From Blastocatellia bacterium (GTDB taxonomy: Bacteria; Acidobacteriota; Blastocatellia; UBA7656), in NCBI GenBank assembly GCA_963804815.1, contig CAWDRU010000002.1, positions 5,187,122 through 5,251,121 of the forward strand: a stretch of 64,000 nt of DNA, written 5' to 3'. This document shows, piece after piece, positions 4,936 to 62,396 of this stretch. Every line of letters starts with the position of its first letter. Position 1 is the stretch's first letter. The notes under the pieces are model-generated. The model was not told where the DNA came from. It did not search any database and saw only the letters and a list, made by a program, of their open reading frames with translations. The translations under genes were made by a program, and so were the position numbers.

Positions 4936-5213
4936 TGAGCAGTGATAACAGAGATCAAGGTCGGCGCGAAGACAAAGGCGGGCGACAGGGGGGTCGTCGC
5001 TTCGTGCGCGCGCGCAAGTCGTGCAAATTCTGCGCGGACAAAGTGGACTATATAGATTACAAGGACTCGCGAACGCTGGGCGGCTACATACCTGAGCGCG
5101 GCAAGATTCTGCCTCGTCGAATATCGGGCACCTGCGCACCGCATCAGCGAATGCTTGCGACGGCGATCAAGCGCGCCCGCAATGCCGCTTTTTTGCCCTT
5201 CGCGGTAGATTAA
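4935..5213 (+). CDS. rpsR: 30S ribosomal protein S18
   Basis: [60 protein letters not shown]. The start overlaps the rpsF stop (TAATG). Confidence 0.9.
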
Positions 5214-41758: not shown

Positions 41759-42080
41759 CCTGAGTCTCCGATTGAATGAAAATAAGCGGGCACGCTTCTT
41801 ATTATTATTAGAAACGCAGATGGCGGCTGGTTGCAAGCGCTTTATCAACGCATTCGTCTTGTCTGATGGGGAATGAAGTAGTGAAGTTGATTGATTGCTC
41901 CAAACGGGTGCTGAGTATGTATGCCCGGATGCGCGTTCAAAATAGTGAAATGTTTTATTAATTTTCTCATTTCGGTATGTAGCGTATTTACAAACCCGGC
42001 TCGATAGCAAAAAGCAATTAAGTAATTATCCGAGTCTTTCGGCCCGTACTCTGAAACATTTCTGAGACAGGAGATAAATC

Positions 42081-45272: not shown

Positions 45273-45322
45273 GCTTTCTTAAATCAGGATTAGCGGCAGG
45301 AATTCAGATGCTCCTGCCGCTT

Positions 45323-45784
45323 TCATTCCGGCTTGCCCGGCAGGTAATAGAATCGCACGATGATGAGTCCTGAAAGCGCCGTCGCGCCCAACAATAGATC
45401 GAGCGCGGAAACGTCGGGGCTGACCATCTTTCTGGCGATGATGAATATGACCACCTCGATTGCCGCGCTGGTCCTGTGAAACAGAAGCAGCAGTGCAAGC
45501 TCGGCAGCAATCCCGACCAGCAGGATGTTCTGGATTATGCCCTGCAACGCGCTGTACTCATCCGTTGGATGCCAGAGTTTCGGAAATTCGCGAACCACTG
45601 TATCGTATGCTGTGATTGCGGCTGCGACGAGCATTACTATTGAAAGCGCCGACAGGAATAGAAGAATCGTATTCCCGACATAGCGATTTACCACTCGCTC
45701 GATGAACGGGTCCTGCTTGACTCCCGTTTCATCCCTTCCTTTTTCTTCATTTTCAGCCAAAGTCTTTCCCCTTTGATCCGGCAA
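45323..45784 (-). CDS. Small polytopic membrane protein, PsiE-like
   Basis: Four hydrophobic segments. Resembles the phosphate-starvation-inducible PsiE family (...IEVVIFIIARKMV...). Weak call. Confidence 0.4.
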   Translation of the reverse strand: MPDQRGKTLAENEEKGRDETGVKQDPFIERVVNRYVGNTILLFLSALSIVMLVAAAITAYDTVVREFPKLWHPTDEYSALQGIIQNILLVGIAAELALLLLFHRTSAAIEVVIFIIARKMVSPDVSALDLLLGATALSGLIIVRFYYLPGKPE

Positions 45785-45844
45785 TAATATCTATTCCACT
45801 CGCGCGAAAAGTCAAGCGAGGCTGAATTATCGAGTATTGATGGA

Positions 45845-46258
45845 TTAAGAACCGACCGGAAGGCGTTTATGGATCTGAGCGTCTGAACACAAAAGGCGCA
45901 GACTCGGTTCCATCCGCGCGAGCAGTCTCATTTTTACTGTGGAAGATTGAATATCGGCTGGTGCAGGCTGGACCGAACGTGAAACCACTTCGTCGCGGAG
46001 CGGCTCAGGAAGCTTATGAACCGCACTCGGCGATCCCGCATTCCGTGGCGATCCCAAGGCCGCGCCGCGACTAAGTCGATTCACGTCCGGTCCAGCCTGC
46101 AACTGAAACACGGCTTCGGTTGATTCAAACGCGCCTGCCAAAGCTGAAACGATCACGGAGAGAGCCATTGCAAACCAGATTGCAAGCCCGGCTGCCATCA
46201 TCACACGAGTCACGCGCTTAATAAGTCTCACTGCCGCCATTATTAAAGTTGCCTTCAA
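45845..46258 (-). CDS. Hypothetical protein with N-terminal TM segment
   Basis: ORF only; no motif recognised. Confidence 0.3.
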   Translation of the reverse strand: MKATLIMAAVRLIKRVTRVMMAAGLAIWFAMALSVIVSALAGAFESTEAVFQLQAGPDVNRLSRGAALGSPRNAGSPSAVHKLPEPLRDEVVSRSVQPAPADIQSSTVKMRLLARMEPSLRLLCSDAQIHKRLPVGS

Positions 46259-46537
46259 TTCCCAACGCCTGCTCGTTGAAGCGGCGTAGAAACTTGTGAA
46301 TCGAAGTGCACACGCTATGCCAAGTGTCCGGCGCGCGTCACGCGATGAATCTAAGTTGTGTTTTTAAGACGAGTTCATCTGTTATGAGATCAATATTGCG
46401 AGGCGCGGCTGATTAGATTTGGTAACAAGTGTGCCGGGAATAAAGTACCGGCTATGGGAAATCTCTATACAGAACTGGATAGGTTTCTGTATCTCATTGT
46501 AATAAAGAATTTACAGGAACACATAATCTGATGACTT

Positions 46538-46780
46538 TCATCTTGTGTGCGGGTTGTGTGCCACTTTCGCAAACACGAGATTTTCGAGCTTCTCCGAGGC
46601 TGCCTGCTGCATTGAAGGCAGAACATGCGAATAAGTATCGAGCGTCAGCGAGATATTAGCGTGTCCTAAACGCTCGCTTACCACCTTTGGATTCTCATTC
46701 GCTGCCAGTAAGAGTGTTGCATAAAGCCTTAGAGCTTCGTTGAGTCCCGCCCGACGCAGTATAGGCTTGAAGTGAAGCCG
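46538..46780 (-). pseudogene. C-terminal fragment of a tyrosine recombinase/integrase
   Basis: Minus-strand frame reads RLHFKPILRRAGLNEALRLYATLLLAANENPKVVSERLGHANISLTLDTYSHVLPSMQQAASEKLENLVF... It has the integrase C-terminal box with the catalytic Tyr (DTYSHV). The usual HDLRHT box is degraded (LRLY), and an upstream in-frame TGA truncates the frame. Confidence 0.7.
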
Positions 46781-46820
46781 TCAGGTGCAGTTCAGCAAAA
46801 CAAACAAGGTTCTCCGCAGC

Positions 46821-47030
46821 GCGCCAGCCGATCTTACATGCTGCACAGATGACTTTAGCAGTGCGCCAGATCGGTTTAGCAGCGCGCAGGCTGACTTCAG
46901 CAATGCGCCAGATCAATTTAGCAGCGCGACGAATGACCCCGGCCCCGTGCCAGCGCGCTTTAACAATGCGCCAGCCGGGTTTAACAGCCGTACAGATGAC
47001 TATAACAGCGGTACAGATGGTTTCAGCAGG
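46821..47030. repeat. 10 x 21-bp degenerate tandem repeat array
   Basis: In-phase units: GCGCCAGCCGATCTTACATGC, TGCACAGATGACTTTAGCAGT, GCGCCAGATCGGTTTAGCAGC, GCGCAGGCTGACTTCAGCAAT, GCGCCAGATCAATTTAGCAGC, and so on to GGTACAGATGGTTTCAGCAGG. Confidence 0.8.
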
Positions 47031-47244
47031 CATACAAACCGTAGAAAAATCAACAGTTGCCCGATTTCGAGCGCGAGCCTGAGGCTCGCTCCATAGCTTA
47101 AAAGGAGGAAGCATAAGCTGACGGCGGCGCGAGCATTTCTGGTTGATGCCACTATCCGAGTCACGTACTCAGATAGTGTCTCCATGCACGCTCCTATGGT
47201 ATCTCGGTCAGTCATTTGAGCTAAACGCTAAAGAAAATCAATAA

Positions 47245-47571
47245 CTATTCAACCTTGAGCATCTTCTTAATCTTCTTTATCTCAGCCGGTTTCAAGTTGA
47301 CTATTTTCCTAATGACAGTAATCAGGCTTTCGGCAGTCCAGGAATCTTCCGGTTCGCCCACCTCGGCAGCAGCCTTTAATACTTCAATCGGCTCAACGTC
47401 CAATCCCTTAGCCAATGCAAGCAGAGTTTTGAGCTTCGGGTTATCGGCATTTCCAGCGAGGATGGTGGCAACATGAGCATCGGTAATCGTATATCCGCTG
47501 TTGCGTTCAATATCCAGCCTGGAAAGATTCTTTTCTTCCATCCGTAAACGGACGAACTCAGCTAGGTTCAT
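47245..47571 (-). CDS. XRE-family HTH protein
   Basis: MNLAEFVRLRMEEKNLSRLDIERNSGYTITDAHVATILAGNADNPKLKTLLALAKGLD. Confidence 0.7.
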   Translation of the reverse strand: MNLAEFVRLRMEEKNLSRLDIERNSGYTITDAHVATILAGNADNPKLKTLLALAKGLDVEPIEVLKAAAEVGEPEDSWTAESLITVIRKIVNLKPAEIKKIKKMLKVE

Positions 47572-47751
47572 TTGCCCCTTTGGGCGACAAGAAAGTGATT
47601 GATAATACTGATGCTGTCAAGGTACTATCTTGCCATTCTATTATAGTAAACAATTTCCAGCCTGTCAGGATGTTGTTTTACCGACTGCATCCTGACAGAC
47701 CTTTTTATTATCATATGCGAAGCATTTGACGCAAATGTACGCTCTGTAACG

Positions 47752-47897
47752 CAGGGCTGTAACAAAGTAAAAGTAGGGGCAGGGCTTGTCCCTGCCCGGA
47801 TGGCCGACAGGCCATGACAGTCATCGCCTTACAGCGATTCGGGCAGGGACAAGCCCTGCCCCTACCATGATTGTCAACCGACTTTGTTACAGCCGTG
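47752..47897. mobile_element. 146-bp MITE, copy 2
   Basis: 145/146 identical to 18044-18189. Flanked by the direct repeat TCTGTAACG (47743-47751 and 47898-47906). Confidence 0.85.
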
Positions 47898-48030
47898 TCT
47901 GTAACGGATCAGGAATCATTGCGAAGCTAACAGAGATTTATCCTTTTGAAGTTGGTGTGATGAAGGGGATGTACGTTTTGGGAAGATCCTCAGAGTTGCA
48001 ATCAATGTGCATACCTCCCTCTTTTTTATG

Positions 48031-48276
48031 TCTAAACAAATAGAAGCTGCTCGCTATATTACAAATCTTCTCGCCCGCAGAAATATACACATAGAATCGG
48101 GCATATTGCTTATCGGGGAGTGTGATTGGCAGGTATTCGACTATAAAAGAAAGTGTCTTGCTATAGACCCCAATGCTGGCTTATGGATTGGAATGTCGGG
48201 CGGTAAATGGAACCCGCTCGGAACCTGTACGGTGAGTACGGCCCTTCAAGCTGTGGAGTTTTTTACCAGAGATTAG
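48031..48276 (+). CDS. Hypothetical protein (81 aa)
   Basis: ORF only, in a lower-GC remnant region. Confidence 0.25.
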   Translation, partial: SKQIEAARYITNLLARRNIHIESGILLIGECDWQVFDYKRKCLAIDPNAGLWIGMSGGKWNPLGTCTVSTALQAVEFFTRD

Positions 48277-48521
48277 CTTTAGTAGTAAGTATAGCAAATC
48301 CAGTTTGGCGGGGCTGTGGATAAGTCAGTAAGGTTCGATGTAGAATTGTTCTCTGTTATTACAAGTACAGGAGACAATTTACAATCGCCGCCGCCACCGA
48401 CTGTACCTTGACTTTTGCTGTAGATCGTAATAGAAACTACACCCTATAGCCCGCCTCTGAATTGAGCAGAGGGAGAGCAAACTTCAATTTGGCATGTATT
48501 ATTGCTCGGAGGTATTCCGAC

Positions 48522-50930
48522 GTGTTGCACGATTGCAGGAACGCCATACGCCTGATCTCTAAAAACTGGGGATTCGCAGCTATAGTCGCGCTTACGCTTG
48601 GTCTGGGCATAGGCGCAAACACTGCTATCTTCACTGTAATAAACAAGGTCCTCTTACAGCCTTTGCCTTACCATCATCCTTCGCAACTGGTGATGTTACA
48701 GGCGGTAAGAACCGGAGGCGATTTTGGCACGCTCGGCATGTCGGTGCCCGACTTTTTAGATTACAGAGATCAAAACAGGTCATTCGATTATCTGGCTGCG
48801 ATATCCTCAATAGGCATGAATTTGTCAGGCGCGGTTGAACCTGTCAGGGTGCAGGGAACCCGCGTATCGTCCGGCTTCTTCTCCATGCTCGGTGTGAACC
48901 CGCTGAAAGGCAGACTCTTTTTGCCGGAAGACGAGAAAGCCGGGGCAGAGCGTATCGTCATGCTGAGCTTTGGCTTATGGTCAACCAGTTTTGGCTCTGA
49001 TGAGAAGATATTTGAAAAGAAGGTTCTGCTCGATGGTGAAAGCTATAGCGTAGCGGGCGTGATGCCTCCTGATTTCCGCCCTCCCTTTGCGCGAGCCGAT
49101 ATCTGGGTGCCTTTCAGCGTAGACCTGTCAAAGACGACACGCGACACGCGCCACATCAGAGTTATAGGCAGGCTGAAGCCGGATGTGAGTCTTCCGGCGG
49201 CAGAATCCGAACTGACTTCGCTGGCAGCACGCCTCGAACAGGAATACCCTCAAACAAATGCGAAAATCGGAGTGAAGGTATCAAGCCTTCACAGTTTTCT
49301 TGTAAGAAACGCCAGAACAACAATCCCCGTTTTATTAGGCGCAGTCGCCTTCGTCCTGCTCATAGCCTGCGCAAACGTCACAAATCTACTTCTGGCCAGA
49401 GGCGGCGCGCGCAGAAAGGAGATGCTAATCAGGACTGCGCTCGGAGCCAGCCGCGCGCGCATCATAAGGCAGTTGCTGACGGAAAGTCTTTTTCTGTCGT
49501 TTGCGGGCGCAATCATCGGGATACTGCTGGCGCATTGGGGGACGCGAATGCTCGCCACCTCGTTGCCCAATTTCATAAGCGACTCTATCCCGGCGCTCAA
49601 GGATTTGAGTTTAGACTGGACAGTGCTGCTTGCGACAATCTTCCTGTCGGTGCTCGCAGCCGTGATTTTCGGGCTGACTCCTGCGCTCAGAATATCGGCC
49701 CCTAACCTCAGCCGTCTTGTCAGAGAAAGCGGCGTGGTTTCAGACAGAGGCGGAATGAAGCTTGGCGGATTGCTCGTAGTTTTAGAGATAACTCTGACTC
49801 TGGTGCTGCTGACGGGAGCAGGGCTAATGATCAAGAGCTTTTACAAGCTTGTGGGCGGAGATCAGGGATTCAATCCCGAAGGCTTAATAACCATGCGGCT
49901 GTCGCTTCCCGTGTCAAAGTACAAAGAGGCGGCTCAGGTCAAGAGTTTCATCGATAACTTAATCGAGAAGTCCCGCTCGACTCCGCTTGTGCAGTCGGCT
50001 GCCGTTATAAGCGAAGTCCCCTTCTCTAACAGTAATTCCTCTGACATATTCGCCATAGAAGACTGGCCCAGCAGTTCAACTGCCGACCGCCCCATTATCA
50101 AATATCACAGCGCCGGAGAGGGCTTTTTTAAAGTCTTCGGGCTTCCGTTACTGGAAGGCGTGGATTTTTCAGATGTAGACAGGGAAGATTCGCAGCGCGT
50201 CGTCATAATAAACCGCCGCGCGGCTGATCGCATCTGGCCGGGCGAATCACCTATCGGAAAGCGCATAAGGTTCGACCGCAGATCTTTTCCCTGGTGCACG
50301 ATTGTCGGAGTCGTGGGAAATGTCAAGCATTCGGGTCAGGATAACAATGAAGAACCGGAAGCATATTTCCCGATCAGCCAGTTGCCCGTCCGCAACCTCA
50401 CGCTGGTAGTCAGAACGGCATCCGATACCAGCAGCGTGGCAAACGCCATTCGGGAGGTCGTCGTGGCCGAAGACCCGGATCAGCCTTTATACGATATACA
50501 GACAATGGAACAGGCAATCTCGGACTGGGCAGTATCTCAGCGATTGACGAGCTGGCTGCTCGGAGTGTTCGCCTGTATAGCTATGGTTTTGGCCGCGACA
50601 GGCGTATACGGCGTCATGTCTTATTCGGTCGCGCAAAGAACGAAAGAGATAGGGCTGAGGATGGCGCTTGGCGCGGGAAGGATACGCATGCTTCAGATGT
50701 TCCTTTATCGAGGCGCTCGCATCACTTTAGTAGGGATAGCAGTCGGAGCAGCCGGGGCCATTGCCTGTACAAAAGCCATGTCAGCCCTGCTTTATGACGT
50801 GCAGGCGTTTGATCTACAGGTCTTCGTAACCGTTTCACTGGTGATCGCGCTTATCTCTGTGATAGCGATTCTTATTCCTGCTTACAGGGCCACCAGAGTA
50901 GACCCTATGGAAGCGCTCAGACAGGATTGA
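48522..50930 (+). CDS. ADOP-type duplicated MacB/FtsX permease (no adjacent ATPase)
   Basis: GGAGG (48508-48512) then GTG 48522. VLHDCRNAIRLISKNWGFAAIVALTLGLGIGANTAIFTV N-terminus. Two FtsX modules. C-terminus ATRVDPMEALRQD. Confidence 0.8.
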   Translation: MLHDCRNAIRLISKNWGFAAIVALTLGLGIGANTAIFTVINKVLLQPLPYHHPSQLVMLQAVRTGGDFGTLGMSVPDFLDYRDQNRSFDYLAAISSIGMNLSGAVEPVRVQGTRVSSGFFSMLGVNPLKGRLFLPEDEKAGAERIVMLSFGLWSTSFGSDEKIFEKKVLLDGESYSVAGVMPPDFRPPFARADIWVPFSVDLSKTTRDTRHIRVIGRLKPDVSLPAAESELTSLAARLEQEYPQTNAKIGVKVSSLHSFLVRNARTTIPVLLGAVAFVLLIACANVTNLLLARGGARRKEMLIRTALGASRARIIRQLLTESLFLSFAGAIIGILLAHWGTRMLATSLPNFISDSIPALKDLSLDWTVLLATIFLSVLAAVIFGLTPALRISAPNLSRLVRESGVVSDRGGMKLGGLLVVLEITLTLVLLTGAGLMIKSFYKLVGGDQGFNPEGLITMRLSLPVSKYKEAAQVKSFIDNLIEKSRSTPLVQSAAVISEVPFSNSNSSDIFAIEDWPSSSTADRPIIKYHSAGEGFFKVFGLPLLEGVDFSDVDREDSQRVVIINRRAADRIWPGESPIGKRIRFDRRSFPWCTIVGVVGNVKHSGQDNNEEPEAYFPISQLPVRNLTLVVRTASDTSSVANAIREVVVAEDPDQPLYDIQTMEQAISDWAVSQRLTSWLLGVFACIAMVLAATGVYGVMSYSVAQRTKEIGLRMALGAGRIRMLQMFLYRGARITLVGIAVGAAGAIACTKAMSALLYDVQAFDLQVFVTVSLVIALISVIAILIPAYRATRVDPMEALRQD

Positions 50931-52109
50931 TCAGGTAAGAGCGCAGTCGGATGCAATAGTCTGCTCTATAAGCTCAGCGGCGCGGCGCGCGCCGCCCGCC
51001 CGCTCGAATCCGTGTTTCAATCTTTGCGCGCGTTCCCTCAGGTCAGAGCTTGTCAAAAGTTTATCTACGCTGCTTTCGATCAATCCGGCATCTACAGTCG
51101 TTGCATAAACGCGCAAGGCCGCCCCGGCCTTTTCACAACGCTCGGCTATGTCGTCAGACCCGCTGCCGGAAGGAAAGAATAAACTTGGAAGACCATGTAT
51201 CAACGCTCCCAGAACCGAAGTTGTATGCGCGGTGCTTATTACGGCTGAGCAATAAGGTAAGACCTTGCCCAGAGGCACATGTTCGCGTATGAAAAAATTT
51301 CCGGGCGTGCTGCCTACCTCTTCGTCCATCCGCCCCACATCGGCCACCACTCGGATGGGTTTATCTCTTAAAGCATCGCACAGTTTCGCCCAGAATCCCT
51401 GCATGGTAAAAGACCGGCCCTGCTGCACGTAGATGACAGGTTCGGCGGCAGCTTTCGCCTCTTCAAGCCACGCCGATAATTCCGGGTCCGAAGATGCCGG
51501 TTCCCAGCCGCAGCTTCCAACAAAATGTAGATTCGATGGAAAGTCGTATCGGCTCTGTTCCAGTTCCGGGACGCTCTGGAGTAAGTAGAGATCGCCAAGC
51601 ATTGGGTTCGATAGATGATCCGCGTCGCTCGCCGAAAGGCCGAGCGCGCGGCGGGCGTTATTGTAATGAGACATCATATCCCCGTATCGCCATTGTGTCT
51701 CTTTCTCGATGCGGGTTTCAGGCTCGTAATCCAACGGCCAGAGCGGCCATAAATAAGCGGCCAATCCTAAAACGACAACCGGCAACCGGGTGATCTCGCC
51801 CGCTATGAGCGGGCCGAGCGTAAGCTGCGTTGTTACGAGCGCGTCAGCCTGAAACCGCTCAAGCGCATACTGAATATGTTTAACCTGAATGGCAACGGCT
51901 AACGGCTTGGTCCAGTTCCTGACCTCAAAGCTGGTCAGGTCTTTTGTGCCACACGGAATGCGGGAAAACTCCACCTGATTGAGGGTCTCGGAAAAAGCGG
52001 AGTCGGTGACAAAGCTGACTTCGTGCCCCTGCAACCGCGCAGCCTCGGCCAGCCCGATAAGCGGGTAAACAAAACCGTGGCTGGCAAGTGGGCAGAATAG
52101 ATATCTCAT
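50931..52109 (-). CDS. GT1-family (GT-B, MGT/UDP-glycosyltransferase-like) glycosyltransferase
   Basis: MRYLFCPLASHGFVYPLIGLAEAARLQGHEVSFVT is a typical MGT-type N-terminus. The C-terminal nucleotide-sugar region is TTSVLGALIHGLPSLFFPSGSGSDDIAERCEKAGAA. Starts 5 nt after the upstream gene's stop. Confidence 0.75.
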   Translation of the reverse strand: MRYLFCPLASHGFVYPLIGLAEAARLQGHEVSFVTDSAFSETLNQVEFSRIPCGTKDLTSFEVRNWTKPLAVAIQVKHIQYALERFQADALVTTQLTLGPLIAGEITRLPVVVLGLAAYLWPLWPLDYEPETRIEKETQWRYGDMMSHYNNARRALGLSASDADHLSNPMLGDLYLLQSVPELEQSRYDFPSNLHFVGSCGWEPASSDPELSAWLEEAKAAAEPVIYVQQGRSFTMQGFWAKLCDALRDKPIRVVADVGRMDEEVGSTPGNFFIREHVPLGKVLPYCSAVISTAHTTSVLGALIHGLPSLFFPSGSGSDDIAERCEKAGAALRVYATTVDAGLIESSVDKLLTSSDLRERAQRLKHGFERAGGARRAAELIEQTIASDCALT

Positions 52110-52113
52110 GATT

Positions 52114-54213
52114 TTATGCTTTCAGCGCAACGAGCCTTTGATTACTCTCTGTCAGCAGGAAATCTGTCAGCGCGCCAAGCGCCGTAGCGGTTGTGAAATA
52201 ACTGTTATGATCGGCAACCAGCACGCCAAGCCCCGTGCCCGAACCTTGCGACCACTGTTTGTTCTCCCACGGATTCAGGTCGCCTGCATTCGGTATGCGA
52301 AGCATCGGTCGGGAATCGAAGCTGCCGTTGCGGTTCTGAAAGTTGAGCAACCAGACGATGCCGCGCGCAACGGCCTGCTTTACATCAGGAGTTCTGACCC
52401 TGATGAGCATAAGCGTTCTGAGCGCCAGCGCGGTTTCAAAGGCGAGATTTTTGCCCGTCGTATCAAGTCCCCAACACCCCTCGGCTGACTGCTTTTGCAG
52501 TATGCTTTCCGACATCCCTTTAACATCGGACTCCGTCAGCCGATAGCCTGTCTTTATCAGCGCGCGCGTGCTGTAGAAAGTGGCGTACATCTGCCCGTCC
52601 CACCAGAAAGCCTCCCAGATGCGATCATCTCCCCATACCTTTTTTATGAAGTCAGTGGCTCGGATGACCGATTCATCCGACGGCGCGACGCCGAGCTTTA
52701 ATAGAGTATCTACCGCAACGGCAGTTACCTCGACGTGGCTCATCCCGTATGACTGAAAGCCGCTTCTTCCCTGCGCGGGGATGGTGAAAAACCCGCCGTC
52801 TTCCTGCTGAAACCCCGATACGAGCGCGATAAGTTCCTGCTTTTCCTTCTCGCTGATCTGGCAGGTAGAGACCATGAAGTTCACTACCCACGCAGTCGTG
52901 TCTGCGTCTTCGGGCACGTTCCTCAGACACGGCCATCCTATCGCCTGTTTTTCACTGATGAGCCAGTCGCGCATTCTCTCCAGCAAAGCGGGCAGGCCGC
53001 GCGTCTTTCTTATGCCTTTTATTTTAGAACCCGGCATCTGCCATTCTCTGAGCGCCGCGCCTACATACGCGCTCACCCAGATCGGCAAGGTCTCGCCAAA
53101 CGCCATGAAATCTTCATAGAAGCCCTTCGCCTTGACGAGAAAATCGCAGGCGTCTGCGGCTGCATCCGAAATCCGTCTGGGCGTTTTCCAGACCGGATGA
53201 GCGCAACTGTTCGAGCCGTTGCCGTTCGATGACAGGGTGTATTCGTGAGTGCGGGTTTGCAGCAATGCTTCGCGCGAATGCATGGATACTTCGGAGCGCA
53301 CGCTGTGGACGCCCATCAACAGCGAATCTATAAGGTCTTTCCAGTGGGGACAGTTTATGCCTTCGACCTTCTTTTTTGCCTCCGTACAGTAGCGCGCAAG
53401 CTTGCGAAGATAATCTTCCGCAAATCCCGAAAGGTACAGATATTTTCCTATCAGGCTGATGCGGTCTTCGGGGCTGAGAGAAGCCAGTTTGCCCTGTAAG
53501 TTGCAGGTGGTGATCGTCTGCGTGAGCAGGTAGGTGTATCTCTCGGCTTTAAGGTCTTCCTTCCAATCCTTGAAATCGTCAAACAATTGTTCGGCGGCAT
53601 AGTATAGGTCGAGCGAGTCTTCGAGAGGCTTGCGCAGTTCTTCCTGCCCGGACACAAGGCACAGCGAGACGACTATGATCTTGGCCATGGCGGATTTGCG
53701 CGAAAGGACTCTGATTATGTCCCGGCTCGAATACTGTTCTATCTGACCTTTGTGAACCCCGTTTTCAAGCAGGATAGCCTGACTGTACTGGCGGAAGAGT
53801 CTATCTAAATCTTTCCATGGCAGCGGCTGCCCGTCGAAGACTTCCGAGAGCGTAGCAAAGGCGGCCATTTGAAATGAGTTGCTCGCAATAACTCCTGCCG
53901 CGCAATGCGCGCCCGCCTCGTCGATCATCTCGTCATTGATGAGCAGTTGATAAAGCATCAACAGCCCAGTGAGCGCCAGTTTCTGTTTCTTTTCGCGCGC
54001 TGTGTCCGGGAAAGCATCAGAAAACAGGAACGGGAAATAGGCGTAAAAACTGTTTCCCACTTCTGCTCCGCGCAACTCACGAATGTGTTTGGAGAGGATC
54101 GGGTCATCAAGACCGGGAATGGTCTTTCTTATCTTGTTGAATTCATCCCATGCACGCTTGCCTTCGACCCGCAGGCCCGCAGTGGATATCTCTCTGATAA
54201 TTCTGCCAGTCAT
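52114..54213 (-). CDS. Fusion protein: N-terminal isoprenoid-synthase-fold (polyprenyl synthase / ComQ-like) domain plus C-terminal squalene-hopene-cyclase-like (prenyltransferase/SQHop repeat) domain
   Basis: N-terminal Asp-rich motifs LINDEMIDE (53917-53937) and LFDDFKD (53566-53580). C-terminal VPEDADTTAWVV (DADTTA at 52891-52908) aligns with the SHC motif DxDDTA. QW-like repeats QQEDGGF, QSAEGCWG, QNRNGSF. Confidence 0.65.
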   Translation of the reverse strand: MTGRIIREISTAGLRVEGKRAWDEFNKIRKTIPGLDDPILSKHIRELRGAEVGNSFYAYFPFLFSDAFPDTAREKKQKLALTGLLMLYQLLINDEMIDEAGAHCAAGVIASNSFQMAAFATLSEVFDGQPLPWKDLDRLFRQYSQAILLENGVHKGQIEQYSSRDIIRVLSRKSAMAKIIVVSLCLVSGQEELRKPLEDSLDLYYAAEQLFDDFKDWKEDLKAERYTYLLTQTITTCNLQGKLASLSPEDRISLIGKYLYLSGFAEDYLRKLARYCTEAKKKVEGINCPHWKDLIDSLLMGVHSVRSEVSMHSREALLQTRTHEYTLSSNGNGSNSCAHPVWKTPRRISDAAADACDFLVKAKGFYEDFMAFGETLPIWVSAYVGAALREWQMPGSKIKGIRKTRGLPALLERMRDWLISEKQAIGWPCLRNVPEDADTTAWVVNFMVSTCQISEKEKQELIALVSGFQQEDGGFFTIPAQGRSGFQSYGMSHVEVTAVAVDTLLKLGVAPSDESVIRATDFIKKVWGDDRIWEAFWWDGQMYATFYSTRALIKTGYRLTESDVKGMSESILQKQSAEGCWGLDTTGKNLAFETALALRTLMLIRVRTPDVKQAVARGIVWLLNFQNRNGSFDSRPMLRIPNAGDLNPWENKQWSQGSGTGLGVLVADHNSYFTTATALGALTDFLLTESNQRLVALKA

Positions 54214-54223
54214 AAAGCTCTTG

Positions 54224-55657
54224 CTATTCCAGATCGAGCCGCGCGGTTACAGGCGCTTTAGAAAAAGGCGTGTTCATCCATTGCAGGAGCTTGTTGTCGG
54301 CTCGTAAGCGCATCGGAGACGTAGACGAAGGGTCCATATTGACCTTCTTAATCCGCAGCCCGTTTTTTACCTTCACCTCTGTATAGTCGATGTAGCCGAT
54401 CCCTCTGACTCCCCAGAAATCAACCAGCTTCAACGTACGATCTCCGCCATCCTCATCCGCCTTCACAAGCGAAGAGACCGGTGCCAGCGCCTCGATCACC
54501 CTTGCGCCTGCTCCCCACTCTCCGTTGAAGAACTTCGTAGAGCGATCAGCATATTTATCGACGATCTCGAAATCATCCGTGCCCAGAAGCACTCGAAGAT
54601 TCTTTGTGGCAAATTCTTCGTAATACTTCCATTCCGCCGGGTCGTAGCTGTTTGCTTTGTCCCACAAAAAATTGTGAGTCTGGTTGAAGGGCCGCATCAA
54701 CAATTGCACACGCACTTTATCGTCGTTTTCAAGCGTTACGACTACGTTGCAGGCTTCGATGTTTACCTCTGGCAGCTGTCTGGTCAGAAAGAGTCCCTTG
54801 GGATTGAGCCTGTCGTTGCCGAAGACGACCGGCTGCAAACTCGCGATTGCGACAGCCGCTATGCCCCAGCCCAGGATCTGTCTGCCTGTGATGGCAAAGC
54901 TTGCCTGCTTATCGGATTTAGTCGATGTGATGACAAAAGGCATCGCTAGAAAGACCACTACTAACAAAATCATATGCGGCAGGTGCCTGTTGGGGTTGAT
55001 CACCCCTTCTCCAAAACCCGCGCTGAGCATGATGATGCTCTGGAAGCTCATGATGATTACACAGGGAAAGATCAGGACCGCAGTGACCAGCGCAAGACGC
55101 TGGCGGTATGTGACGGTTGGAAAATCGAACGAGACCTGACGAAAGATAAGCCGGAAGAAACTTATGATCAATATTACGTTGAAGACCAGCCATAAACATT
55201 TTACAGTGACCTGAAAAGCGAACGGAAATCCCAGCATCGCGAGCGCCTGACCCGTCTCTTTATAATTCCTGCGCCACGGCGGAAAGACCCCTGTCATGTT
55301 TATAACCATCAATGCCGAAACGCCGCCCACAAGCGCCCAGATTAAGCGCGCCCTGTTCCCCTTTACACCCACGGCTATGATTACCAGAGCAAGGACCGCG
55401 ACCAGAAAATTGAAGACAGGCCCGGCAAGCAACACCAGCGCCTCTTTCCACGACTGGGAGCCAAGAGGGAAGTAAAAAATGCTTCTTCCGCCATCGGCAT
55501 CTACGGCTATAAAGGGGAAATAGCCTCCAAGTGAGACTGCCGTCAGGCCGTGCGCCATCTCGTGAAAGAAGGTGAGAACCTGAAAGACGCCGTAAAGCAG
55601 AAAGGTCATCAAAATTGCTAAGGCAAGGTATTTTTTATTTATCTCTGTGATCCTCAT
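54224..55657 (-). CDS. M50-like integral membrane zinc metalloprotease with C-terminal soluble domain
   Basis: HEMAHGLTAV (HExxH) in the first TM region, about 8 TM segments, and a soluble C-terminal domain of about 200 aa. The start overlaps the upstream gene's stop (ATGA). Confidence 0.6.
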   Translation of the reverse strand: MRITEINKKYLALAILMTFLLYGVFQVLTFFHEMAHGLTAVSLGGYFPFIAVDADGGRSIFYFPLGSQSWKEALVLLAGPVFNFLVAVLALVIIAVGVKGNRARLIWALVGGVSALMVINMTGVFPPWRRNYKETGQALAMLGFPFAFQVTVKCLWLVFNVILIISFFRLIFRQVSFDFPTVTYRQRLALVTAVLIFPCVIIMSFQSIIMLSAGFGEGVINPNRHLPHMILLVVVFLAMPFVITSTKSDKQASFAITGRQILGWGIAAVAIASLQPVVFGNDRLNPKGLFLTRQLPEVNIEACNVVVTLENDDKVRVQLLMRPFNQTHNFLWDKANSYDPAEWKYYEEFATKNLRVLLGTDDFEIVDKYADRSTKFFNGEWGAGARVIEALAPVSSLVKADEDGGDRTLKLVDFWGVRGIGYIDYTEVKVKNGLRIKKVNMDPSSTSPMRLRADNKLLQWMNTPFSKAPVTARLDLE

Positions 55658-56955
55658 ATGGCCCTTCTCTGGAATGTTTTCTTCAACAGCTTGAACAGAG
55701 TATTTTTCAGGATGGCGAACACAAACAAGAGGAAAAACAGGTTCATAAAGAGCTTGAGAACGCTTATGAGAAAAGGCGCAGTCCCTCTGTTGCCCACCAG
55801 ATCACGCGCGCTTGCCACGGTCGCAAAAACCTTGTCCGGGGTAAATATGAGCAGCAGCACTATGAATGTGGAAAAGAAGGCGATGCTCAGGAAAGAGTAG
55901 GTCGCCAGGACAAATTTACGCCCCTGACCTTTCACCTCTTTGAATGTGGGCATATCCTCTGCGAACCCAAGGCTCCAGAGAACCATCTCTTTGACAACTT
56001 TCCATGATCTTTTTTTAAGATTAATCAATCCCGTGAGATCGACCAGTAACCAGTAGCCATCGAATTTCAAGAGCGGGTTGAGCGACAGCAGCGCCAGTGC
56101 GTCTACTGAATAGATGGCGGCAGCGCAATAATTGCTTCCGGTGATGGCGAATACCAGAAACAGCGGTATGACAGTAATCAGTTGAAAATATATCCCTCCA
56201 ATATCGATCACTGCGCGCTGACGCCCGGAAAGCCTCCAGGCATCGGAAAGATTCACATAGAAAGCCGGGAAGATGATATAGAGGAGCAGCCCTATGCCGC
56301 CAGTCGTACACTTGTAGTTTCTACACGCGGCTGCGTGCCCGATTTCATGAAAGAGTGCAGTCAAAAGCACGAGCCCGTAACAGAACAGATATTGCCAGGC
56401 GCTCAGATTTGTAGTCTGCCGTGGCCGCAGCCAGCCTCCGTAGAATGCAAAATGCGCGAGGATAAACCCCACGATGGCGATTGCGCAAATCCCCGGTTTG
56501 TATAGCCACGTGAATCTGTCTGCCATCCGCATCGCAAGCTGCGGTTTTATCAGTACGATCTTGAAGATAAAGTCGAGCGGCTTTATCACCACCGATTTCG
56601 CATCCGCAACGCGCGGTTTCACGCTTTCACAGCTTGCGGCTTGCTGAACCGTCTCTACCAACCCGTAGGGCAATAGATAAGTATCTATCACATTCCTGAT
56701 CTTTTCAGGGGTTACCAGAGCGTTTTCGAGTCGGGATACTTCAAGAGCAATCTGCTCCAGATCGCGCGCTCCATCGAGCATCAGGAGAATGTCTCTCAAT
56801 CTCTCGGAGAGCATTAAAGACCGTCCCTGCTCAGTTTTTGCTACGTATTGAGGGCTTGAAGCGCATGAGTCGAGCGGCAGAACCTGAAGGCCAGGAACCA
56901 TTTTGAAGACTATCTGCACATCGGCTGGGGCCAGTGTGTTTGTTACCGCAGACAT
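55654..56955 (-). CDS. M50-like integral membrane zinc metalloprotease with N-terminal cytoplasmic winged-helix/RRE-like region
   Basis: LFHEIGHAAACRNYKC (HExxH) within a polytopic membrane domain. The N-terminal ~120 aa are soluble (RLRDILLMLDGARDLEQIALEV...). Confidence 0.6.
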   Translation of the reverse strand: MSAVTNTLAPADVQIVFKMVPGLQVLPLDSCASSPQYVAKTEQGRSLMLSERLRDILLMLDGARDLEQIALEVSRLENALVTPEKIRNVIDTYLLPYGLVETVQQAASCESVKPRVADAKSVVIKPLDFIFKIVLIKPQLAMRMADRFTWLYKPGICAIAIVGFILAHFAFYGGWLRPRQTTNLSAWQYLFCYGLVLLTALFHEIGHAAACRNYKCTTGGIGLLLYIIFPAFYVNLSDAWRLSGRQRAVIDIGGIYFQLITVIPLFLVFAITGSNYCAAAIYSVDALALLSLNPLLKFDGYWLLVDLTGLINLKKRSWKVVKEMVLWSLGFAEDMPTFKEVKGQGRKFVLATYSFLSIAFFSTFIVLLLIFTPDKVFATVASARDLVGNRGTAPFLISVLKLFMNLFFLLFVFAILKNTLFKLLKKTFQRRAI

Positions 56956-57097: not shown

Positions 57098-57349
57098 CTA
57101 ATTTTCTACCACATCCGGCAGTTCAGGATTACGCCCGCCACCGCCACCGCCGCCACCCGGTCCAACCGGCTGAGGATTAGTTGGAGAAGCGAACGTGCCG
57201 CATTCTGCACCGCAATCCCAGCAGCCTTGCGCTTCGGTCACATGCAGAAGCTGGAGCTCAAGTCTCTCTTCAAGGTCTTCTATGCTGAGGTTGGCCAATA
57301 CATCATCATTCAGCGGCTGAATCTCAAGATTCTCTGCTTTCTTTTTCAT
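57098..57349 (-). CDS. Candidate RiPP precursor peptide (83 aa)
   Basis: GGAGG RBS 8 nt before the ATG. Leader-like MKKKAENLEIQPLNDDVLANLSIEDLEERLELQ. Core-like LLHVTEAQGCWDCGAECGTFASPTNPQPVGPGGGGGGGGRNPELPDVVEN. Lies directly downstream of the rSAM/SPASM gene. Confidence 0.65.
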   Translation of the reverse strand: MKKKAENLEIQPLNDDVLANLSIEDLEERLELQLLHVTEAQGCWDCGAECGTFASPTNPQPVGPGGGGGGGGRNPELPDVVEN

Positions 57350-57466: not shown

Positions 57467-59038
57467 TTAATGGCCAAAGCTGGCTTCAACCGATGGCGCA
57501 TCCCGGTCGAGACCTCCCTGCAAAGCCTGATCAATGCCTTTCTTGAAGAAAGCCTGACCCGCGTACAGAAAGTTGTCTTGGAATTCGTAGCATGCGGGGC
57601 CGAATATCGTCCCCTTAACCCCTATCGGCAAAGAGGCGCAGCCGCCAAAGTGGAAGAAGGCGTACTTGCAGTTCTTACATTCGTCGATGGTTGCCGGAGA
57701 CCGCGTAAGCCAGTCGTCATTCCTGCCGTTTAAGGCAGGCCCGGCAGGCGAGTATGTGCCGGTCTCATGCCCGACCATCCCTACTGTGTCCCAGCACGTA
57801 TAAATCTTCCAGAACGGGTCGAAGATATACAGGCCCGTCGTAGCCGCGCATGGCTCGATGCCCTTGGCATAAAGGCCCGGCAGCTTATCTTTTACATAGG
57901 CTTTCAGCTTCATTTCGATGCCTTCATCAGAAGCCAGCACTTTCAACTCTCTGCCGCGCGCGATCTGTTCGCCTTGAGCGTAGATGGGCAACGAGCGGGC
58001 CTCGATCATCGGTTCCAGTTCCCTTTGCATATGGTGAATTGCCATCAGCGGGTAGTCAGGGTTTGCCTGCCCCTTATGAAAGTTATGCACGGGATAGGTG
58101 TAGACTTCAAAGTTGTCGTGTTCGTGAAAACCTTCGCTCTCAAGGTCATCTATGAGCGTTTTCACCTGCGATATGTTTTTGAAGTCTACATGGAAACGTA
58201 TCGAAACATGTGCCCCGGTCGGAAGCGCCTTCTTTATATTGCTGATGATCATGTCGTAAGTGCCCTGTTTGTACCGGGGGCCGACACGCTTTTTATTGTG
58301 GATTTCGCGCGGGCCATCAAGCGTGATCTGAAGGAAGCCTATCTTGTCCGGGCCTAGAAGGTGGATATAGCGGTCCAGGTCAACGGCATTTGTGATAGCG
58401 CCGAATTTGTAACCCTGCTTTAATCCTTTATCAATTATATACTCCACTATCGGCACAGTTTCGGCCATAAGCGGTTCGCCGCCATACAGAGTTATGTACT
58501 TCGTGTTATCACTGAGAGCCTCGCTTTTGGCTCCGAGCCGCTGCTTGACGAGGTTGTCCATACTGTCGAAAGCGGCGTCCACCATCGTCTCTGTCATCAC
58601 CTTCTGGAGCACTTTGAGCTTTCCCAGCTCTATACGCGTATCCGTCTCGAAACAGTAAGGGCAACGCAGATTACACTCATAGCTGGGGACCATCATGAAT
58701 CTGGGACGGAACCCCTTCACGTTTCTGTCGTGCAGGAAGCCCGCAATATGTTCAACGTAGTTCAATTCTTCCGCCGAAGACATGGTCGTCAGGTAACCCC
58801 GGCTTTTCAGCATGCCGATCGTGTCATCCGACACCTCGCCGAGTTCTCTGCCACAGAGCGCTTCTCTGACAATCTCCTGGTCTTTTATGTGCCAGGTGTG
58901 GTCAGGATCAACGCGCTCCAACAGATAATTGGCAACTTCGGCTGACACCAGGTCAACGGCTCCCGTATAGCCATGAACCAGATAGAATTCGTCGTTTTCA
59001 GAAACGTGAAAAAAGATGATGTAGTTACTCGTCTTCAT
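57467..59038 (-). CDS. Radical SAM / SPASM-domain peptide maturase with N-terminal RRE-like domain
   Basis: CNLRCPYC (CxxxCxxC, 58652-58675). GGEPL motif. C-terminal Cys-rich SPASM-like region (CAATTG..., YTCWD, CKNCKYAFFHFGGC, GPACYEF). About 110 aa lie ahead of the rSAM core. Confidence 0.85.
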   Translation of the reverse strand: MKTSNYIIFFHVSENDEFYLVHGYTGAVDLVSAEVANYLLERVDPDHTWHIKDQEIVREALCGRELGEVSDDTIGMLKSRGYLTTMSSAEELNYVEHIAGFLHDRNVKGFRPRFMMVPSYECNLRCPYCFETDTRIELGKLKVLQKVMTETMVDAAFDSMDNLVKQRLGAKSEALSDNTKYITLYGGEPLMAETVPIVEYIIDKGLKQGYKFGAITNAVDLDRYIHLLGPDKIGFLQITLDGPREIHNKKRVGPRYKQGTYDMIISNIKKALPTGAHVSIRFHVDFKNISQVKTLIDDLESEGFHEHDNFEVYTYPVHNFHKGQANPDYPLMAIHHMQRELEPMIEARSLPIYAQGEQIARGRELKVLASDEGIEMKLKAYVKDKLPGLYAKGIEPCAATTGLYIFDPFWKIYTCWDTVGMVGHETGTYSPAGPALNGRNDDWLTRSPATIDECKNCKYAFFHFGGCASLPIGVKGTIFGPACYEFQDNFLYAGQAFFKKGIDQALQGGLDRDAPSVEASFGH

Positions 59039-59483: not shown

Positions 59484-62396
59484 TTACTGTGTCGAAACGG
59501 CGGTGACGCGCACGTTATCGAGATAGAAGCCTTCAAACTTATTGCGCTTCACATCTGCTGAAGATGTTATGAAGGTGAAGCTGAAATATGCCCGCTTCCT
59601 GCCGATATATTGAAGGTCAACTTTCGCCGGGCGAAACGCCGCGTCTGTGTTCGGTCGCACGTCGAACGCCAGCGGAAGCGTAGGCTCGTCCGGGCCAGTC
59701 GAGGCTCCGCTAAACGGAAAATTTCTGACCGTCAGGCTCATCAAATCGCTTGGCGTTTCGAGTCCGCTGAAGTAGTAATCAAACTCAAGCTGCGGTTTTG
59801 CCATGTTTTGCAAGTCTATGACGGGCGAGTAAGCCACGCCTGAGCTACCGGCTTTCGTGTAAGACTTGCGATCATTCGAGCCTTTTTTCTTTGAGAAGTA
59901 GAGCGAATGAATTCCGCCCGCCGCCCGCCGCTTCGTCAAATGCCAGTAGCCCTGCAACAGCCATTCCGGCGCATCCTGCTCGAAGTCCATCGAGTAAAGC
60001 GTGATGCGGCGGCCCGCCACCACGCGCATTTCAGTTGTTTCAAACGCGCCCGATTCGTTGCGCTCGTTCGCGTAGCTGATGACGAACTCGTCGCCCGGTT
60101 GAGCCTGTATGCCTGCGCCCGGCCCGCCGTCGGCCAGCAGGCTGAATGTGTTCGTGAAGCGGCCCGGAATGCTTTGCGGAAGATTTAATATTGTGTCCGC
60201 GCCTGTGCGCGAATTCCTGATATGCACATCAATTGAAGGCGCGGACAGCAGGTCGCGATCAACGACAACGATTGCGATCTGCTCGCCAATCACTATGGGA
60301 GAGCCCGGCCTGTCATTGATCACAATTTCGCCTGCTGAAACTTCGGGTGGCATCTCGTAGCTTTCAATCGCAGAAATTCTGTATCCGGTGCGAACAGATG
60401 ACAGAGAAGTCGCAGCGGTCTTGCCCAGACCGCGACGAGCGAACGCTCGCCATATTAAATCCTGATTCGCGCCGTTATTGGTTGTTCGGTCGGCAAGCAA
60501 TATCGCGTCGCGCGCGTCTATAAAGGTCGGAACAATCGGCGTAACTTTCAATCCGTTGATGACGAGTCGCTCGGCTGCCTGTCGTCCCGCGTCGAATCCA
60601 TAACGCTCGATAAACGACTGCCGCATCTCCCAAAGCATCGTGCACCAGACGGTTCCCTGCGCGTGAACTTCCGAGTTGGCTTGTATGTCGGCAAACGTGA
60701 GCGGGTCTGTGTCCATTCTGGTGCTGTAGGGATAGGCTCGCACGCCGCGCGCGCGCTGAGTGATGTAGCTTCCAGTCGTGACTGATGCGTCGAGGGGTTT
60801 GTCGCTGCCCGCGAGAAAAGACATGGCGAAAAAGTCGGACCAGCCTTCGCCCATACCGCTGCCCTGATTCGACCGCAGCCCGATTGTATTGTCCGTTCCC
60901 GCCAGTCGCGTCGAGACGCCGTGCGTGTATTCGTGAATTATCACGCTCGCGTCGTAGGAACTGTCGAGTTCTACGGCCTGCCCGTTTACGGTCTGGTTCC
61001 ACAGAAGCATCGCAAGCAGGGGCGGCGTACCCTCAAGGGTCGGGGTGAAGTAGGCGTTATTACGAACAAGCTGGTTTGTTTTCGATGGATTGATGTCAGC
61101 CCCGCGCAACGTATCTGCCCGCACAGGGTCCCCTCCCGCGCCTTTGCCGAAATTGTCAGCCTGAAAGTTGCGCGACAGTTCGTTGAAGCCGAGCGCGTAA
61201 AAGCGGTCGTGCGCGACGTTGACCCAGTAAAAGAGATTTGCAGCCGAAGCTTCGCCCGAACTTAATGGAGAATGTCCCAATGTAAGATCGAGCGCAAAAT
61301 CGAAATTGCCGTCGGCGTTCGCCTGTACGATATTACCGCCGCTTAGAGTTGGATTTAGAAAGACTCGCGCGTTATTGCCTTCTGTGCGGTTCGCGCCAAC
61401 CCAGCCTTGCGGCGAAGCGGTCTGGTCTCCGGCAAACGATATCATCTCTCGGTCGCTCAGGGCAGGGCTCTCTTTTGCAAAGACTCTTCCCTGCGGCCCG
61501 TCCACGGCAAGCGTGAGCGAGTCGCGTCTAAGCGCTTCGCCCGTCTTTGCGTCTATCAGTATCAGGTAGGAATCAAGCGCAGTAGGCACGCCGTAGAGCA
61601 GGACTTGAAAGGCAAGCCTCACATCATCGCGCGTGATCGGGTAATAAACCAGACTCGCCTCCGAGCGGCTATCCACTTCATCAGACGAAAAGACGACGCG
61701 CTCGCGCGCAGGCAACGATTCCCTTGTGGCCGTGAGCGGAGCCGCGAGCCGCACCCCGCAAATTTGAGCCGCCCGCGAAAGCGCCTGTTCCGCAGTCATC
61801 AAAGGCGACGGCGCGGGCGCTCGATGTTCGATCTGCGGAATGAAGCTACCGGATACCGAAAGAACGCGGCCCTCGCGGTCGAGTATAAACAGCATTTCAG
61901 AATCGAAGACTCGAATTCGATTCACCCTTTGTTCGAGCGCGAGCCGGGTCAGTCCCTCCCGCTCGTCGATTGTATGAGCCGAGACGCGGGAAGAATCGAT
62001 CTGATTCCGGCTTGCGGCAAACAGAGCGCGGTTGTCTCGAATAAAGCGATGGGCGATTGTCACAGCCGTATCGTTTGACCGGGGCGTAAGCGGAGTTGCG
62101 AGCGAGAGCAGCGCGTGAGGCAGGTCCATCTCGTCATTCCATCTGAGAATGGCTTTATCATTCAAAGCCAGCGCGCGTTGCTTCTGTTCGACGTTTGAAA
62201 CCTCAATAGGGCGCGCGCGCAGTTGCCGAGCGTCGAAATCGGGCAACGGTTCAAACTCTTTTGTAACCCCGACTTCATTTGAAGACGCGGGCAGTAATAC
62301 CTGCGCCGCAATCGGAAACTGCGAAACGAATACAAAAATAGTTATGAAGAGAAAAATGCTGTAGCGGCTGCTGGAACTGAATGAATTGAAGAACAC
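59484..62396 (-). CDS. Secreted M36 (fungalysin-like) zinc metalloprotease with propeptide and C-terminal extension
   Basis: Signal-like N-terminus, VIIHEYTHGVSTRL (HExxH), and GEGWSDFFA, characteristic of M36. Long C-terminal non-catalytic domains. Confidence 0.8.
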   Translation of the reverse strand: MFFNSFSSSSRYSIFLFITIFVFVSQFPIAAQVLLPASSNEVGVTKEFEPLPDFDARQLRARPIEVSNVEQKQRALALNDKAILRWNDEMDLPHALLSLATPLTPRSNDTAVTIAHRFIRDNRALFAASRNQIDSSRVSAHTIDEREGLTRLALEQRVNRIRVFDSEMLFILDREGRVLSVSGSFIPQIEHRAPAPSPLMTAEQALSRAAQICGVRLAAPLTATRESLPARERVVFSSDEVDSRSEASLVYYPITRDDVRLAFQVLLYGVPTALDSYLILIDAKTGEALRRDSLTLAVDGPQGRVFAKESPALSDREMISFAGDQTASPQGWVGANRTEGNNARVFLNPTLSGGNIVQANADGNFDFALDLTLGHSPLSSGEASAANLFYWVNVAHDRFYALGFNELSRNFQADNFGKGAGGDPVRADTLRGADINPSKTNQLVRNNAYFTPTLEGTPPLLAMLLWNQTVNGQAVELDSSYDASVIIHEYTHGVSTRLAGTDNTIGLRSNQGSGMGEGWSDFFAMSFLAGSDKPLDASVTTGSYITQRARGVRAYPYSTRMDTDPLTFADIQANSEVHAQGTVWCTMLWEMRQSFIERYGFDAGRQAAERLVINGLKVTPIVPTFIDARDAILLADRTTNNGANQDLIWRAFARRGLGKTAATSLSSVRTGYRISAIESYEMPPEVSAGEIVINDRPGSPIVIGEQIAIVVVDRDLLSAPSIDVHIRNSRTGADTILNLPQSIPGRFTNTFSLLADGGPGAGIQAQPGDEFVISYANERNESGAFETTEMRVVAGRRITLYSMDFEQDAPEWLLQGYWHLTKRRAAGGIHSLYFSKKKGSNDRKSYTKAGSSGVAYSPVIDLQNMAKPQLEFDYYFSGLETPSDLMSLTVRNFPFSGASTGPDEPTLPLAFDVRPNTDAAFRPAKVDLQYIGRKRAYFSFTFITSSADVKRNKFEGFYLDNVRVTAVSTQ

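Follow-up and report, generated by a model that had tools for sequence, protein, structure and literature searches.

A probable fused prenyltransferase-cyclase peptide maturase in a conserved radical SAM operon of a Blastocatellia bacterium

Peptides with cyclised terpene units are very recent in natural-product chemistry, and to our knowledge only two enzymes that install such units have been characterised. The fused prenyltransferase-cyclase (PC) maturases ChrPC and NctPC, which act on peptides that are made by the ribosome and modified after translation (RiPPs), were characterised in the work of Hubrich et al. (Chem 2024), for which the summary in PMC13290415 is followed here; enzymes of this type date, in the literature, from 2024. 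In that summary, ChrPC consists of a P domain like the trans-IDS enzymes (trans-isoprenyl diphosphate synthases) and an MstE-like C domain, and its target is an internal Trp, with C10-C20 donors, the chain being cyclised afterwards. NctPC is described as an ABBA-fold P domain joined to an MstE-like C domain that geranylgeranylates Trp and then cyclises the chain (PMC13290415, PMC13647313), and it is cited in the literature together with the terpene-RiPP hybrid steromaze. In the account given in PMC12715784, macrocyclisation precedes lanthipeptide prenylation. Here, a gene at positions 52114-54213 (minus strand) of a 64,000-nt stretch of contig CAWDRU010000002.1 from a Blastocatellia bacterium (assembly GCA_963804815.1) was analysed; the whole stretch is called the window below. 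The 699-aa product of this gene is most probably a bifunctional RiPP maturase of the fused PC type. The host belongs to the Acidobacteriota, a phylum with little characterised chemistry.

The gene was called as an ATG-started open reading frame (ORF), supported by 12 full-length homologues and by an AlphaFold (AF2) model. Start, length and domain layout are common to these homologues (37-90% identity), and the full-length model had a predicted local distance difference test score (pLDDT) of 83.7 and a predicted template modelling score (pTM) of 0.79. The orthologue alignment comprised 13 sequences, to which the word invariant refers where residues of this protein are concerned. Domain identities, motif conservation and operon conservation were computed. 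An initial annotation of this DNA, made from the letters and their translations, had read the gene as a fusion of an isoprenyl-synthase-like domain with a class II cyclase domain, and both halves were borne out by the models and by matches in the PDB.

By description, the window protein is most like ChrPC, with which it shares the order and types of the domains (a trans-IDS-like P domain, then a monodomain class II cyclase), a Trp-bearing ribosomal precursor encoded alongside, and a P domain without an assigned Pfam or InterPro family. NctPC is likewise a fused P-C maturase, whereas its P domain has the ABBA fold and that of the window is all-helical and trans-IDS-like. The substrate of ChrPC is given in PMC12715784 as a macrocyclised lanthipeptide, and the known PC proteins occur with lanthipeptide or proteusin enzymes; in contrast, the partners in the window are a radical S-adenosylmethionine (SAM)/SPASM enzyme, two membrane HExxH proteases and a GT1 glycosyltransferase, and the host lineage is Acidobacteriota. 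The window clade also differs from the known PC systems in showing Trp/Tyr variation at the presumed acceptor.

The C domain (residues ~340-699; 52117-53196, minus strand) was identified as a monodomain (beta-only) MstE-type class II terpene cyclase using phmmer, Foldseek, Pfam and QW-like repeats; MstE is the founding member of the monodomain class II cyclases. Searches against PDB sequences using phmmer matched residues ~347-688 to 8PAK from Cystobacter fuscus (E = 5.7e-31), and the C domain was also matched to 8PAJ from Archangium gephyra (E = 3.2e-27) and to MstE from Scytonema (E = 4.8e-22). The best Foldseek matches of the full-length model were 8PAK, 8PAJ, MstE and 6IJ1, with target-normalised template modelling (TM) scores of 0.79-0.84, a root-mean-square deviation (rmsd) of ~3 Å and identities of 24-31%. 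Two-domain squalene-hopene cyclases (SHC), oxidosqualene cyclases and diterpene cyclases trailed at TM 0.33-0.49. Matches to Pfam SQHop_cyclase_C (E = 1.4e-8) and Prenyltrans (E = 7.8e-8) were found in residues 447-635, both above the gathering score. This half contains three distinct repeats of the QW-like form Qx(2-5)Gx[W/F], beginning at residues 469, 573 and 626, and the initial annotation had noted such repeats here; the pattern gave five overlapping matches against 0.5 expected in shuffles, and the fraction of shuffles that reached five was 0.0002. The C-terminal half holds one toroid domain only. Fold and sequence likeness, together with a DxD(T/S)T motif, place the C domain among the MstE-type monodomain cyclases. 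Readings as a LanC-like domain or a protein-prenyltransferase beta subunit were rejected, the best sequence and fold matches being acid-motif cyclases.

The likeness to SHC and oxidosqualene cyclases is confined to the alpha/alpha-toroid beta domain, the QW repeats and an Asp at the general-acid position of DxDD. The window protein differs from them in having no gamma domain, in carrying DxDTT and not DxDD, in target-normalised Foldseek TM scores of only 0.33-0.38 and in NCBIfam scores far below the cut-offs (19-36 bits for the cyclase models against cut-offs of 323-851; TIGR01507, 18.8 bits against 431; TIGR01787, 35.9 bits against 323). With MstE (merosterolic acid synthase, Scytonema, PDB 6SBB-6SBG), 8PAK, 8PAJ and 6IJ1, it shares the beta-only class II fold, the DxDTT/ST motif and the QW-like repeats. 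MstE differs in being a stand-alone 350-aa enzyme that acts on the small molecule geranylgeranyl-dihydroxybenzoate, whereas the window cyclase follows a prenyltransferase in one polypeptide, and its substrate is presumably a chain attached to a peptide. 8PAK and 8PAJ are stand-alone ~360-aa 'squalene-hopene cyclases' of myxobacteria with a DADST motif, released in 2024; a literature search for a description of these two entries returned irrelevant matches only.

The general-acid motif D436-A-D438-T-T (52894-52908, minus strand), located by alignment to MstE with the translation checked, lies in the segment VPEDADTTAWVV, and D436-A-D438-T-T440 is invariant. The central Asp of DxDD is the general acid in class II cyclases, and by this analogy D438 is the likely proton donor. 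Position by position, the query residues EDADTTAW lie opposite GDADTTGW in MstE and ADADSTAN in 8PAK, and the PDB includes the D109N and D109A variants of MstE. MstE is reported in PMC12324236 to use a DxD and not a DxDD motif. The initial annotation was right about the presence of DADT and the retention of its first two Asp residues; the motif is not, however, a decayed DxDD of SHC. Because the MstE-type relatives carry an aligned DxD(T/S)T, DADTT is, as judged from the alignments, the normal motif of MstE-type cyclases.

The P domain (residues ~1-320; 53254-54213, minus strand) is trans-IDS-like and all-helical, as assigned from the AF2 model and Foldseek. A model of residues 1-335 had pLDDT 81.6 and pTM 0.82, and its Foldseek top 50 in the PDB consisted exclusively of trans-isoprenyl diphosphate synthases (polyprenyl, C45, octaprenyl, geranylgeranyl diphosphate (GGPP) and farnesyl diphosphate (FPP) synthases) and the Trp farnesyltransferase Ord1. 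Target-normalised TM scores were at most 0.74 with a probability of 1.00; for example, 4jyx was matched at TM 0.73 and Ord1 (9v4g/9v4h) at TM 0.57-0.68 (target-normalised), also with a probability of 1.00. The model of the N-terminal half is therefore inside the isoprenoid-synthase fold, as had been proposed. These 50 matches included no class I terpene cyclase, squalene synthase or phytoene synthase. No Pfam match was obtained for residues 1-340 at E <= 0.1, polyprenyl_synt (PF00348) included, nor any NCBIfam match, and a 12-sequence P-domain profile gave only a chance match (E = 0.58) against PDB sequences. Because the sequence profile found no PDB match, the fold was taken from structure prediction. 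A squalene or phytoene synthase reading of two DxxxD motifs was rejected, since such enzymes were absent from the fold top 50 and no PF00494 match was found.

Two Asp-rich motifs were located by alignment, with the translation checked: D94-E-M-I-D98 (DxxxD; 53920-53934, minus strand) and Q209-LF-DD-FK-D-W-KE-D220 (QxxDDxxDWxxD; 53554-53589, minus strand). They correspond to the LINDEMIDE and LFDDFKD of the initial annotation, which had put their spacing at about 115 aa; 118 aa were found from D94 to D212. Residues D94, D98, Q209, D212, D213, D216, W217 and D220 are invariant, as is the run Q209-L-F-D212-D213. Among 164 representatives of the wider family, D94, D98, Q209, D212, D213, D216 and D220 are near-invariant (140-163 of 164), with D94 kept in 160, D98 in 161 and Gln at the Q209 column in 140. 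The family signature D94xxxD98...E150...K173xxxxK178...Q209xxDDxxDWxxD220 is nearly invariant in the same set.

Alternatively, the N domain might be a true isoprenyl diphosphate synthase, making a donor such as GGPP for the cyclase or for another transferase and alkylating no peptide. The closest folds are indeed polyprenyl, GGPP and octaprenyl synthases, and KxxxxK and QxxDDxxD resemble regions V and VI of trans-IDS. The first motif, however, is DxxxD and not the DDxxD or DDx(2-4)D of chain-elongating synthases; the residue at position 93 is variable, and no RRG-type segment for binding isopentenyl diphosphate (IPP) follows. The domain thus departs from a canonical trans-IDS both in this motif and in giving no polyprenyl_synt match or sequence-level PDB match, and the conserved operon holds no other candidate peptide prenyltransferase. 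A donor-making role is considered extremely unlikely. The stand-alone trans-IDS-like Trp prenyltransferases ComQ, PalQ and Ord1 share with the window protein the all-helical isoprenoid synthase fold, two Asp-rich motifs and, three positions ahead of where the Asp residues of the second motif begin, a Gln. They differ from the window protein in having no cyclase domain and in that its first motif is DxxxD; Ord1 has no detectable sequence similarity to the window N domain. The Q-x-x-D spacing is the same as that of Ord1 Q216/D219, residues that were mutated in PDB 9v4h and 9v4i, and the match is one of spacing only. In the account of PMC13290415, residues of the Q216/D219 type are linked to the way in which trans-IDS-like peptide prenyltransferases recognise the indole NH.

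Relatives of the P domain were searched with a profile among 1.84 billion cluster representatives (clustered at 50% identity), giving 1561 relatives, 105 of them at E <= 1e-30. By length, three groups can be told apart, of ~300-340 aa (stand-alone), ~650-720 aa and ~900 aa. The best P-domain matches collected included 100 proteins with a length of 550 aa or more, and 83 of these had an MstE-like cyclase domain, so the P-C fusion is a recurrent architecture. The acid motif was DADTT in 19 fusions, DADDL in 13 and DADST in 11, and most of the remaining fusions had other DxD variants. The second Asp was lost in a few, and such cyclase domains may be inactive or use another acid; the replacements DCCTT, DAETT, DAMTT, DAYST, DALTT, DSLTT and DTITT were seen in P0019, P0021, P0023, P0024, P0029, P0033, P0069 and P0082. 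The names of the clustered relatives were generic (for instance, "sporulenol synthase"), with no named ChrPC-like protein among them, and a homologue search with the P-domain alignment returned a single fragment. The P domain was also found within proteins of ~870-945 aa (P0014, P0015, P0037, P0055 and others), the remainder of which had no Pfam match, and the fusions P0032 and P0047 are extended by a GldB_lipo/DUF2268 (putative Zn-protease) domain.

The PC gene is the fifth of an operon on the minus strand in the order radical SAM enzyme, precursor, HExxH protease, M50-like protein, PC and GT1, with gaps of 4-10 nt and one 4-nt overlap. The first gene (57467-59038) encodes a radical SAM/SPASM peptide maturase related to the maturases of Cys-rich peptides (Pfam Radical_SAM; NCBIfam TIGR04463, CefB and Clo7bot-type models, E ~1e-30). 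A polytopic HExxH metalloprotease of 433 aa (55654-56955), like those of daptide and YydH-LiaK systems, gave NCBIfam matches that did not reach the cut-off, to NF041824 (E = 3.8e-31) and to NF058609 (E = 1e-13). It is followed by a second membrane HExxH/M50-like protein of 477 aa (54224-55657; Pfam Peptidase_M50, E = 1.7e-5, and M50B); its start and the stop of the gene upstream share 4 nt. The last gene (50931-52109) encodes a 392-aa glycosyltransferase of the GT1 (MGT/EryCIII-like) type (Pfam EryCIII-like_C; NCBIfam MGT, E = 1e-31). A MacB/FtsX-type ATP-binding cassette (ABC) transporter permease (48462-50930, plus strand; Pfam MacB_PCD and FtsX) is convergent with the operon.

The operon was compared with 14 related loci from metagenome-assembled genomes (MAGs) of Blastocatellia, Pyrinomonadaceae and Terriglobia and from metagenomes. 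The order radical SAM, precursor, HExxH protease, M50-like protein and PC is kept in these loci down to 36% PC identity, and both HExxH/M50 genes are syntenic in all of them. GT1 is present only in loci with a PC protein at least 60% identical, and the MacB permease adjoins the operon in most. The closest PC gene, 91% identical, is from a Blastocatellia MAG (L010). A precursor, a radical SAM/SPASM enzyme and HExxH proteases are thus syntenic with PC, as in a RiPP-maturase operon, and the peptide-maturation operon proposed in the initial annotation is real and conserved in the 14 acidobacterial loci.

This gene order bears on the possibility that PC is a peptide-independent bifunctional terpene synthase, in which the C domain would cyclise free GGPP or FPP, the N domain would ionise the diphosphate and GT1 would glycosylate the terpene alcohol, the RiPP adjacency being incidental. 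A didomain logic of class II and class I steps is well known for diterpene synthases, DDxxDWxxD would also fit a metal site of the DDxxD or NSE/DTE-like kind, and GT1/MGT enzymes typically glycosylate small molecules. Yet PC keeps its linkage to the precursor, the radical SAM gene and the two proteases at identities as low as 36%, while distant loci have lost the glycosyltransferase, and the gaps of 4-10 nt indicate co-translation of PC with the protease and glycosyltransferase genes. The N-domain fold matches are chain-elongating prenyl synthases and Ord1, with no class I cyclase in the top 50, and ChrPC, the characterised relative by architecture, acts on a peptide. A free terpene substrate is accordingly rated as very unlikely, and the peptide-directed PC maturase is the reading followed below.

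The precursor gene (57098-57349, minus strand) was recognised by position and leader conservation. It encodes 83 aa, with the leader ...LANLSIEDLEERLELQLLHVTEAQ, the core GCW44DCGAECGTF... and a Gly/Pro-rich tail. A precursor with a near-identical leader lies between the radical SAM and protease genes in 12 of the 14 loci; the other two, L003 and L008, end before that position. Across loci, the leader (...QPLNDDVLANLSIEELEERLE-Q-LH-TEAQ) hardly varies. The core start, which is followed by Cys-rich repeats, takes five forms: G-C-W-D-C (window, L001/L002/L009, L005/L006, L007 and L010), A-C-W-D-C (L014), A-C-Y-D-C (L004), F-C-Y-D-C (both copies in L012) and W-C-L (L011 and L013). Core position 2 is invariably Cys, and an aromatic residue is always found at position 1 or 3. 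W44, at core position 3, is the only Trp of the window precursor.

We infer all chemical steps of the PC pathway from homology and precedent. In the P domain, D94/D98 and D212/D213/D216 would hold Mg2+, through which a prenyl diphosphate of C10-C20 would be bound; the domain would ionise this donor and alkylate an aromatic residue in the precursor encoded alongside. Trp44, in the conserved segment EAQ-G-C-W-D-C that comes right after the leader, is the most likely site, with Q209/D212 assumed to take the acceptor-recognition role of Ord1 Q216/D219. In the C domain, D438 of DADTT, which takes the place of the central Asp in DxDD, would protonate the distal double bond of the peptide-bound chain and so drive a cationic polycyclisation to a polycyclic isoprenoid. 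Going by their families, the radical SAM/SPASM enzyme would cross-link the Cys-rich core, GT1 would add a sugar, the two membrane HExxH proteases would remove the leader, and the MacB transporter would export the product. Prenyl transfer followed by protonation-initiated cyclisation had been suggested in the initial annotation and is well supported by analogy with the published precedents ChrPC and NctPC. The three points on which it could have failed came out in its favour: the N-domain model is inside the isoprenoid-synthase fold, the C domain groups with the acid-motif class II cyclases 8PAK, 8PAJ, MstE and 6IJ1, and DADTT, with both D436 and D438, is invariant. The idea is not novel, because the chemistry has already been established experimentally for ChrPC and NctPC. 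The PC protein adds to an enzyme type that is already known; its context, an operon like those for peptide antibiotics and not studied before, is new.

Several points weigh against a Trp-directed PC maturase. The fold of the P domain was assigned from a predicted model that shares 13-18% identity with its matches, and at the sequence level the domain matched neither a PDB chain nor a Pfam family. Small molecules are the usual substrates of GT1/MGT-type glycosyltransferases. ChrPC is likened to the window protein by description (architecture and domain types), not by sequence. The visible cores of the distant loci L004 and L012 are without any Trp and have Tyr at the equivalent position, so a non-Trp acceptor is possible in part of the clade, and from these sequences the acceptor may not be Trp throughout it. 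With the PC architecture unchanged, the acceptor in this clade would then be the invariant Cys at core position 2, by S-prenylation, or any aromatic residue (Tyr or Trp) at position 1 or 3. The core starts G-C-W, A-C-W, A-C-Y, F-C-Y and W-C-L, in which Cys is constant and Trp is replaced by Tyr, speak for this; on the other side, the Cys residues are the expected substrates of the radical SAM/SPASM enzyme, the precursor of the window has Trp44, and even the loci with Trp-free cores retain Q209, the residue linked to indole recognition. In addition, all characterised trans-IDS-like peptide prenyltransferases covered in PMC13290415 act on Trp. Such a change of acceptor is rated as rather unlikely, and Trp remains the more likely acceptor of the window PC protein.

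More broadly, and only tentatively, the locus may belong to an undescribed acidobacterial RiPP class. Its products would have a Cys-rich core cross-linked by the radical SAM enzyme and a cyclised terpenoid near the N-terminus, glycosylated in one sub-clade, with paired intramembrane HExxH proteases and a P-domain acceptor broadened or switched from Trp to Tyr (or Cys). If true, a Tyr or Cys acceptor would be the first non-Trp acceptor for the trans-IDS-like prenyltransferase fold. The natural variation of the precursors (Trp, Tyr and shifts of position) is a ready-made test of acceptor specificity. The fusion of a trans-IDS-like P domain with an MstE-like C domain is part of a large family, of about 1,500 cluster representatives (50% identity), to which Pfam assigns no entry, and in Acidobacteriota it has been recruited into a radical SAM, Cys-rich peptide pathway. 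The locus is a good lead for genome mining and biocatalysis, and conceptually it is no surprise.

Some further features of the precursors and of the surrounding DNA were observed. L012 has two tandem precursors. The window core has an unusual G8 run, and it has a long Gly/Pro tail, which the relatives at 60-64% identity lack. Compared with the window (57098-57200, minus strand), the L010 precursor (4940-5085) has a 1-nt indel just after ...GCWDCG-ECGT; the tail annotated in L010 (SILLLLLL...AAAV...) is in another frame, and the frame of the window gives a similar Pro/Gly-rich tail ending in ...LPDV. The indel is probably an assembly error in a GC-rich triplet-repeat tract (GGC/GGT and CCT units).

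Directly upstream of the radical SAM gene, a 970-aa secreted M36 (fungalysin-type) metallopeptidase is encoded at 59484-62396 (minus strand); it is also adjacent in L010 and not in the other loci. Two MacB_PCD/FtsX-type permease genes lie within 10 kb, at 39326-42010 (minus strand) and 48462-50930 (plus strand), and only the second is syntenic with the operon. The region between them at 42081-48300 has a low GC content (0.45-0.50 against ~0.55 elsewhere) and encodes a 1063-aa repetitive protein with no Pfam match, an HTH_3 regulator (47245-47571) and, at 46538-46684, an ORF of 48 aa. This ORF, with the sequence GHANISLTLDTYSHVLP, has no Pfam match and resembles the C-terminus of a tyrosine recombinase. 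The region 42081-48300 may be the remnant of a mobile element bordering the operon.

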